A stretch of 18,484 nt of DNA from the NCBI GenBank assembly GCA_963666485.2, contig CAXXUO010000005.1, positions 1-18,484 on the forward strand, in the 5' to 3' direction. The translations under genes were made by a program, and so were the position numbers. The stretch is from Syntrophorhabdaceae bacterium. GTDB taxonomy: Bacteria; Desulfobacterota; Syntrophorhabdia; Syntrophorhabdales; Syntrophorhabdaceae. This document shows, piece by piece, positions 5,930-6,110 of this stretch (the stretch's first letter is position 1; every line of letters begins with the position of its first letter). Below the pieces are notes generated by a model, which did not search any database, was not told the origin of the DNA, and saw nothing but the letters and a program-made list of their open reading frames with translations.

Positions 5930-6110
5930 CGTGTCCCTTCCTTGTGCAATGCGGGATCTCCTGCGAGTCCCCTGCAACTGTCCGGGTTTATAAGGAGAAG
6001 GTGTGGCGGCCCGAGCTTGGATACGGGATATCATCCCCTGGTTTTTACGGCCTGCCACACCGGCAACCTTTTTCTCTTTTCTATCATGGATTGTTCGTGA
6101 TATTCCACGG
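5930..6110 (-). ncRNA. Predicted IS110 bridge RNA with target-binding and donor-binding loops; ends approximate
   Basis: The stem GGTGTGGC(A)GGCC/GGCCGCCACACC (6061..6000) encloses TAAAAACC (6047-6040), the hairpin GGGAT-GAT-ATCCC and ATCCAAG (6022-6016), which match the target site. A second loop has ACAGTTGC (5981-5974), the hairpin GGGACTC-GCAG-GAGATCCC and ACAAG (5945-5941), which match the donor junction. Confidence 0.85.

Follow-up and report, generated by a model that had tools for sequence, protein, structure and literature searches.

Results

The element and its recombinase gene

The window analysed here, an 18,484-nt stretch of DNA from a Syntrophorhabdaceae bacterium, is one entire contig of a 3.77 Mb genome in 10 contigs. 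Its minus strand carries an IS110-group insertion sequence made up of a long non-coding left end, a single recombinase gene and a short right end (Table 1). The element sits in an intergenic space, with a CorC-type gene and an isomerase gene converging on it. The neighbouring genes (910–3555, 3556–4857, 6252–7610 and 7607–8569) are ordinary housekeeping genes. They include a large 881-aa open reading frame and, recognized with Pfam, a CNNM/CBS/CorC_HlyC transporter-type protein and a phosphoglucose isomerase; one further open reading frame we take, by eye, to be the acetyl-CoA carboxylase alpha subunit.

The 311-aa recombinase combines the DEDD_Tnp_IS110 and Transposase_20 domains, a pair that Pfam reports as PF01548 (E 2e-26, residues 6–147) and PF02371 (E 4.7e-19, residues 189–272). 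Its best sequence match among solved structures is ISCro4 (9t56; E 4e-38, 134.6 bits, residues 5–302), followed in a phmmer search by IS621 (8wt6; E 1.8e-35, 126 bits). Aligned with 8wt6, residues D9, E53, D95, D98 and S233-G234 fall opposite D11, E60, D102, D105 and S241-G242 of IS621; the DEDD motif, S241 and G242 are named as such in PMC11208158. Across 23 aligned homologues, D9, E53, D95, D98 and S233 do not vary. We also considered a 408-aa open reading frame that starts from a TTG at 6202 (4976–6202, minus strand) and rejected it: this longer form spans the bridge RNA, and the Pfam domain already begins at residue 6 of the 311-aa form. One homologue, P0010, is 407 aa long, suggesting that gene callers sometimes over-extend the open reading frame in relatives.

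On the minus strand, the left junction reads GAAAAAC-CT-TGTAT (6132..6119) and the right junction ACAGTTG-CT-TGGAT (4951..4938). An earlier note on this DNA, made from the letters alone, had rebuilt from these junctions an empty target, GAAAAAC-CT-TGGAT, and a donor, ACAGTTG-CT-TGTAT. Both reconstructions agree with our reading, and every string quoted there lies on the minus strand where it was placed. Because CTTG is common to the two junctions, the crossover could be placed anywhere within CTTG from sequence alone; we chose CT as the putative core from family precedent.

Table 1 Features of the element and its surroundings. Positions are those of the window; features are listed in the order in which they are read on the minus strand.
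Feature	Positions	Strand	Basis or remark
Left half of target, GAAAAAC	6126..6132	minus	Read directly and from copies
Whole IS110-group insertion sequence, 1183 bp including CT at both junctions	4943..6125	minus	BLASTN copies
Left CT core	6124..6125	minus	Read directly; same in 5/5 copies
Non-coding left end, 212 nt, putatively bridge RNA-encoding	5912..6123	minus	Between left core and ATG at 5911
TATGAT, -10 half of candidate junction promoter	6116..6121	minus	Script on ends
Predicted 5' stem-loop UAUCA...UGAUA	6082..6102	minus	Minimum-free-energy fold alone
Target-binding loop module (module 1): outer stem of 8+4 pairs, internal loop, inner hairpin	6000..6061	minus	RNAalifold and hand-written structure
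Module 1 outer stem, GGTGTGGC paired with GCCACACC	6061-6054 with 6007-6000	minus	
Left target guide TAAAAACC, then AG	6040..6047	minus	Target top-strand sense
Module 1 hairpin GGGATGATATCCC, then GT	6025..6037	minus	Read directly
Right target guide ATCCAAG	6016..6022	minus	Reverse complement of CT+TGGAT
Candidate handshake guide of loop 1, CU	6014..6015	minus	C can pair with donor G7
Donor-binding loop module (module 2): outer CCC/GGG stem, internal loop, inner hairpin	5935..5986	minus	
Left donor guide ACAGTTGC, then AG	5974..5981	minus	Same sense as ACAGTTG plus core C
Module 2 hairpin GGGACTCGCAGGAGATCCC	5953..5971	minus	Read directly
Right donor guide ACAAG	5941..5945	minus	Reverse complement of CT+TGT at left end
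Recombinase gene, 311 aa	4976..5911	minus	Pfam and PDB sequence matches
TTGACA, -35 half of candidate junction promoter	4958..4963	minus	Script on ends
Right end, 31 nt, terminating ACAGTTG	4945..4975	minus	Read directly
Right CT core	4943..4944	minus	Read directly and from copies
Right half of target: TGGAT, then REP-like hairpin CCCGG..CCGGGATGACGG	4913..4942	minus	4/4 full copies

The arrangement of the ends bears on the group to which the element belongs. As described in excerpts of PMC11208160, the IS110-group layout is a long left end and a short right end; in IS1111 elements it is the right end that is long and carries the RNA, and the subterminal inverted repeats measure 7–17 bp. The protein family and the guide-RNA principle are common to both groups (PMC11208160), which would leave room for reading the element as an IS1111 type with a seekRNA rather than as an IS110-group element with a bridge RNA. 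However, the right end here measures only 31 nt, the RNA lies in the 212-nt left end upstream of the gene, as in the IS110-group layout, and among solved structures IS621 and ISCro4 come closest. We regard an IS1111 assignment as extremely improbable and treat the element as a member of the IS110 group throughout.

A predicted two-module RNA in the left end

Within the left end, a predicted target-binding module is followed by a predicted donor-binding module, each with a pair of guides set about an inner hairpin. In the window, both left guides pair the core C but carry an A opposite the core T, and both right guides end in AG, so that they cover CT. For loop 2, the left donor guide matches the right end plus core C at 8/8 positions and the right donor guide matches the left end at 5/5. 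The latter forms just five contiguous pairs; by analogy with the discontiguous guide of IS621, CAU (5951-5949) could possibly add a split pairing with the ATG that follows. The match counts previously proposed for the four guides (7/8, 7/7, 8/8 and 5/5) all hold, and the lone mismatch, at position 1 of the left target guide (T vs G in the window's own flank), falls at a position that does not track flanks in relatives. The bases of the predicted 5' stem-loop are the same in one relative, L006.

We gathered relatives of the element via its protein, obtaining 80 loci from genome records and 80 from metagenomes. Among named records, a Syntrophorhabdus sp. MAG comes closest, with 83% protein identity; the other genome-record relatives are 48–57% identical and include Nitrospirota, Dehalococcoidia and Methylomirabilota. 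Loop 2, the left end and the right end were found by pattern in 52 of 81 loci, window included, with the 29 unparsed loci excluded before counting. Aligned, the parsed loci share one two-module frame. In the 45 distinct sequences of this alignment, a hand-written structure leaves 97.7% of cells paired, compared with 32–47% for slid controls, and shows double changes in 14 of 25 pairs, a level reached by 0 of 500 shuffles. For the loop-1 outer helix alone, double changes affect 10 of 12 pairs, and the paired fraction of cells is 98.7%. RNAalifold independently yields the same helices. Loop 2 and its own stems are nearly invariant among the relatives, and the loop-1 stem varies freely. The near invariance of the loop-2 helices agrees with the greater conservation of the second loop over the first in published IS110 bridge RNAs (PMC11208160, seen in excerpt).

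To search with the shared structure, we trained a covariance model on 43 relatives, none above 57% protein identity, leaving out the window and its closest relative. The model has a single match in the window, a full-length one at 5927-6062 on the minus strand (88 bits, E 2.7e-17). It also matches 65 of the 80 metagenome loci, always immediately upstream of the recombinase gene and on its strand. This independently trained score, together with a guide–flank match that beats 10000 permutations (below), places the two-loop RNA beyond chance. Folding energy was uninformative, the whole left end being no more stable than shuffles (z -1.36; equally good folds in 20 of 200 shuffles).

At gathering thresholds, no Rfam family matches here. 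The only notable match at E-value thresholds is sX15 (RF02234), a Xanthomonas sRNA, on the plus strand at 5950-6070, opposite the bridge RNA; its 30 bits (E 0.013) fall short of the gathering score, 55, and it serves as a lead only. According to an excerpt of PMC3300014, sX15 is complementary to a plasmid transcript, asX7, and has 10 homologues in a Stenotrophomonas chromosome. Such a pattern would be in keeping with an IS110-type left end, and the sX15 family may be the antisense of a bridge RNA.

Genomic copies occupy one kind of site

BLASTN against the genome revealed four copies that are 100% identical over exactly 1183 bp, and one truncated copy. Comparing the copies, we found that flanking sequences diverge right outside the 1183-bp element. 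Left flanks end in AAAAC-CT in 5/5 copies, and in 4/4 full copies the right flank opens with TGGATCCCGG, a short loop and CCGGGATGACG, which form an REP-like hairpin after TGGAT. Positions 3–8 of the left guide (AAAACC) correspond to AAAAC plus the core C at 5/5 genomic copies, and the right target guide makes 7/7 matches at 4/4 full copies. Insertions at unrelated sites, named in the earlier note as evidence that would count against guidance, were looked for; 5/5 copies lie at AAAAC-CT-(TGGAT).

The truncated copy (contig C4, 148775-149178) is cut after 401 bp, with its left end complete and its gene reduced to the first ~190 bp. It differs by one substitution in the inter-loop linker and by a 3-nt insertion in the loop-2 hairpin loop. 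The 400 bp that follow it hold several direct and inverted copies of a different repeat of ~25 nt with GGACGTCC, and this repeat also appears in a loose end of run X1.

The hairpin next to the target belongs to a family of 160 copies in the genome (TGGAYYCCGG..CCGGRATGAC). The preceding bases, AAAACCT (the target) or AAAGACAC, distinguish at least two subfamilies. Beyond the occupied sites, the target 12-mer AAAACCTTGGAT occurs 27 further times in the genome, compared with 0.30 expected from base composition, and 24 of these 27 free 12-mers are followed by CCCGG of the hairpin. Four of 31 perfect sites are occupied. A variant 12-mer ending in TGGGT is present 41 times and holds 0 of the 4 full copies; this outcome would have a probability of ~0.03 without discrimination between the two sequences and is weak evidence for it. 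One such near-target, AAAAC-CT-TGGGT plus hairpin, lies unoccupied in the window at 6181-6216 (plus strand), 57 bp away from the element and in the opposite orientation to the occupied site.

Guides track flanks across relatives

The earlier note had proposed asking whether loop-1 guides co-vary with the flanks of homologous elements. We located element ends via conserved donor motifs alone, never via loop 1, and discarded 3 of the 52 parsed loci with too-short flanks, leaving 49 loci with 42 distinct guide pairs. Over the five non-core bases, right guides match their cognate flanks at 4.55/5 positions, compared with 1.48 for non-cognate flanks. Over the first seven bases, left guides match at 4.29/7 compared with 2.37. 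Neither observed sum was reached in any of 10000 permutations, and the predicted co-variation holds over these 42 relatives. The test is conservative, as at least one locus with a misplaced left end (L070) and three with an alignment shifted by one base (L013, L016 and L052) were all retained. In sequence terms, we consider guide–flank covariation the decisive computational test for loop 1.

Matches are unevenly distributed along the left guide. Positions 1–7 agree with the flank in 10, 14, 24, 31, 31, 33 and 37 of 42 elements, position 8 (core C) in 33 and position 9 (core T) in 24. Because positions 1 and 2 track the flank poorly, the effective left guide in this clade would be positions 3–8.

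Close relatives, at 69–87% protein identity, show single-base guide changes paired with flank changes. L086 has the same guides and the same target as the window. The right guide of L087 reads TGGGT and its flank is TGGGT; in L090-L096 and L006 the right guide reads GGAAC, as does the flank; and in L089 and L145 a left guide with ..CAAACC accompanies a CAAAC flank. In L098 both guides are altered and both flanks are altered likewise. L088 is an exception, with three guide–flank mismatches, one of them in the core-binding bases. A stricter loop-1 pattern failed on 3 of the 15 close relatives; two of these were recovered from covariance-model matches, and L097, with unrelated sequence upstream of the gene, was dropped.

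Loop 2 behaves similarly. In 13 loci, a left donor guide of the form ACGGTTGC, ACAGTCGC, ACAGCTGC or ACCGTTGC is accompanied by an equal change in the right end. The exceptions are L063, which combines the left donor guide ACGGTTGC with a right end reading ACAGTTGCT, and L020, L023, L026, L027 and L034, in which position 8 of the left donor guide is a base other than C.

We also inspected the bases that follow the right guides. The C after the right target guide complements position 7 of the donor in 40 of 43 elements and position 7 of its own target in 1 of 43; the G after the right donor guide complements position 7 of the target in 39 of these 43 elements, and never its own donor. At the second handshake position, pairing is found in just 7 and 12 of 43 elements. 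The first positions fit the non-cognate handshake pairing rule that PMC11208158 describes for IS621, although at the sequence level the pattern is one of conservation, not covariation.

Sequence and structure at the target are harder to separate. Perfect sites mostly adjoin the hairpin (24 of 27 free sites and 4 of 4 occupied ones), making the two inseparable within this genome, and a structural layer atop RNA pairing has been proposed for ISPpu10 (10.64898/2026.03.19.712850, in excerpt). It could therefore be argued that the protein, or the shape of the REP-like hairpin, picks the site, with the left-end structure acting as a leader that regulates the recombinase and the flank matches being incidental. 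We judge this very unlikely, since guides track flanks in 42 relatives drawn from unrelated flank contexts and single-base changes in the guides of close relatives are paired with changes in their flanks. A structural layer could, moreover, supplement RNA guidance but is no substitute for it.

With RNA guidance as the preferred reading, we tentatively propose a trimmed bridge RNA code for this clade. Left guides would pair five flank bases and the first core base, leaving the core T unpaired; ~12 bp would be recognized in all, and the REP-like hairpin would act as a second, structural layer of specificity. We hold this code to be possible, with the odds against it. If it is true, relatives that differ by one base, such as readers of TGGAT and of TGGGT, would partition the REP subfamilies of their hosts.

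A candidate promoter at the joined ends and a proposed life cycle

Joining the right end to the left end in silico leaves exactly 17 nt between TTGACA and TATGAT. Of 47 distinct junctions in relatives, 36 show a -35 hexamer (at least 5/6 matches) with this spacing, and in the integrated copy we found no sigma-70-like site upstream of the RNA. As judged from these motifs, a candidate sigma-70 promoter is formed solely when the element ends join.

These features can be assembled into a working model. By analogy with IS621, the element would excise as a circle, and end joining would create the TTGACA-17-TATGAT promoter, which would drive transcription of ~200 nt of the left end and probably of the recombinase gene behind it. 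The RNA would fold into two internal-loop modules. Loop 1 would read AAAAC-CT-TGGAT, the edge of one REP-like hairpin subfamily, its 5' guide (effectively AAAACC) pairing with the bottom strand and its 3' guide AUCCAAG with the top strand. Loop 2 would likewise read the joined ends, ACAGTTG-CT-TGTAT, via ACAGUUGC and ACAAG. Strand exchange next to CT would follow, performed by the 311-aa DEDD/Ser recombinase as a tetramer.

We put the probability that 6125..4943 on the minus strand is an intact IS110-group insertion sequence using a bridge RNA encoded in its left end at roughly 90%. The domains, catalytic residues, layout, two-loop structure and guide–flank covariation all support the bridge RNA system recognized in the earlier note, and we infer transcription, RNA–protein binding and catalysis by analogy with characterized elements. 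That note had further called the system intact and reprogrammable. The former description stands on an open frame and four 100% identical copies; the latter is suggested by natural guide and flank co-changes alone.

An element whose RNA and guides are real might nonetheless now be silent, its copies being recent relics, for instance because its promoter or host context is unsupportive. The contigs of runs X1 and X2 (of unknown kind, possibly from the source sample) cover the locus and hold neither a circle junction nor an empty site, and no transcript was seen in the runs; one copy is truncated, with its substitution and 3-nt loop-2 hairpin insertion; and just 4 of 31 perfect sites are occupied. 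However, the four full copies show no difference along their 1183 bp, and the reading frame and catalytic residues are intact. The runs, moreover, provide no usable test: raw DNA run X23 and RNA run X19 contributed 0 reads and 0 contigs, respectively, at the locus, and the X1 and X2 contigs do not amount to a test of excision. We consider a silent element unlikely and retain the reading of an intact, RNA-guided one.

The X1 and X2 contigs do contain a join of 4944 to 6184 that skips 1239 bases, with a shorter side of 30 bases and depths of 2.9 and 7.4. This join links the hairpin on the right of the element to the inverted hairpin on its left and differs from a precise empty site. It probably represents a different locus with two facing hairpins, and may instead reflect a rearrangement between the two hairpins.

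Discussion

The element is a further example of a system described in 2024, of a class heavily studied since. The earlier note had placed it in a known class, and its architecture and strand logic are indeed those published for IS621. Like IS621, it encodes a protein with the same two Pfam domains and aligned DEDD and Ser residues, has a candidate promoter across its joined ends and inserts into REP-type repeats. Excerpts of PMC11208160 and PMC11208158 extend the likeness to the CT core, to a left-end RNA in which the target loop precedes the donor loop, to 5' guides in top-strand sense and 3' guides complementary to the top strand in both loops (PMC11208160), and to first handshake positions that fit the non-cognate pairing rule (PMC11208158).

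The two elements also differ. Their recombinases are distantly related, as the phmmer score given above indicates, and their target sequences are different. IS621 guides cover both core bases, with the 3' side pairing the top strand over four to seven (PMC11208160, in excerpt), whereas the left guides of our element pair the core C and carry A opposite T. Covariation in its clade is confined to left guide positions 3–8, with ~12 recognized bases; its right target guide is 7 nt long, compared with the four-base guide analysed for IS621 in the same source; and its second handshake position is unpaired in most elements. A possible close similarity between the IS621 donor and that of our element finds no confirmation in the main text of the IS621 paper, from which the expected string is absent.

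ISCro4/IS622 (9t56; 10.1101/2025.05.14.653916, in excerpt), compared by protein alone, is the best solved-structure match and still a distant orthologue. ISPpu9 and ISPpu10 of Pseudomonas putida, likened by their description in excerpts of PMC12288879 and 10.64898/2026.03.19.712850, are multicopy IS110-family elements that each occupy one kind of REP, in another host and another repeat.

The 14-nt donor motif ACAGTTG-CT-TGTAT has 188 and 424 occurrences in two supplementary files of PMC11208160, which indicates that the clade was already within the published covariation analysis (Durrant et al. 2024). Neither the 12-nt target nor 'Syntrophorhabd' occurs in 7 files of PMC11208160, one of them partial and a further file being unreadable, and among the papers searched none pairs Syntrophorhabdus with IS110.

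The picture of how IS110 elements function is unchanged by this element. What it adds is a compact bridge recombinase (311 aa, 1183 bp), apparently recently active, from a Syntrophorhabdus-like anaerobe, with directly readable target and donor codes. Among its close relatives, guides re-aimed by single bases make up a natural series, which shows which left guide positions matter in the clade. Such a series would be useful for studies of guide rules and in the search for genome-engineering orthologues.
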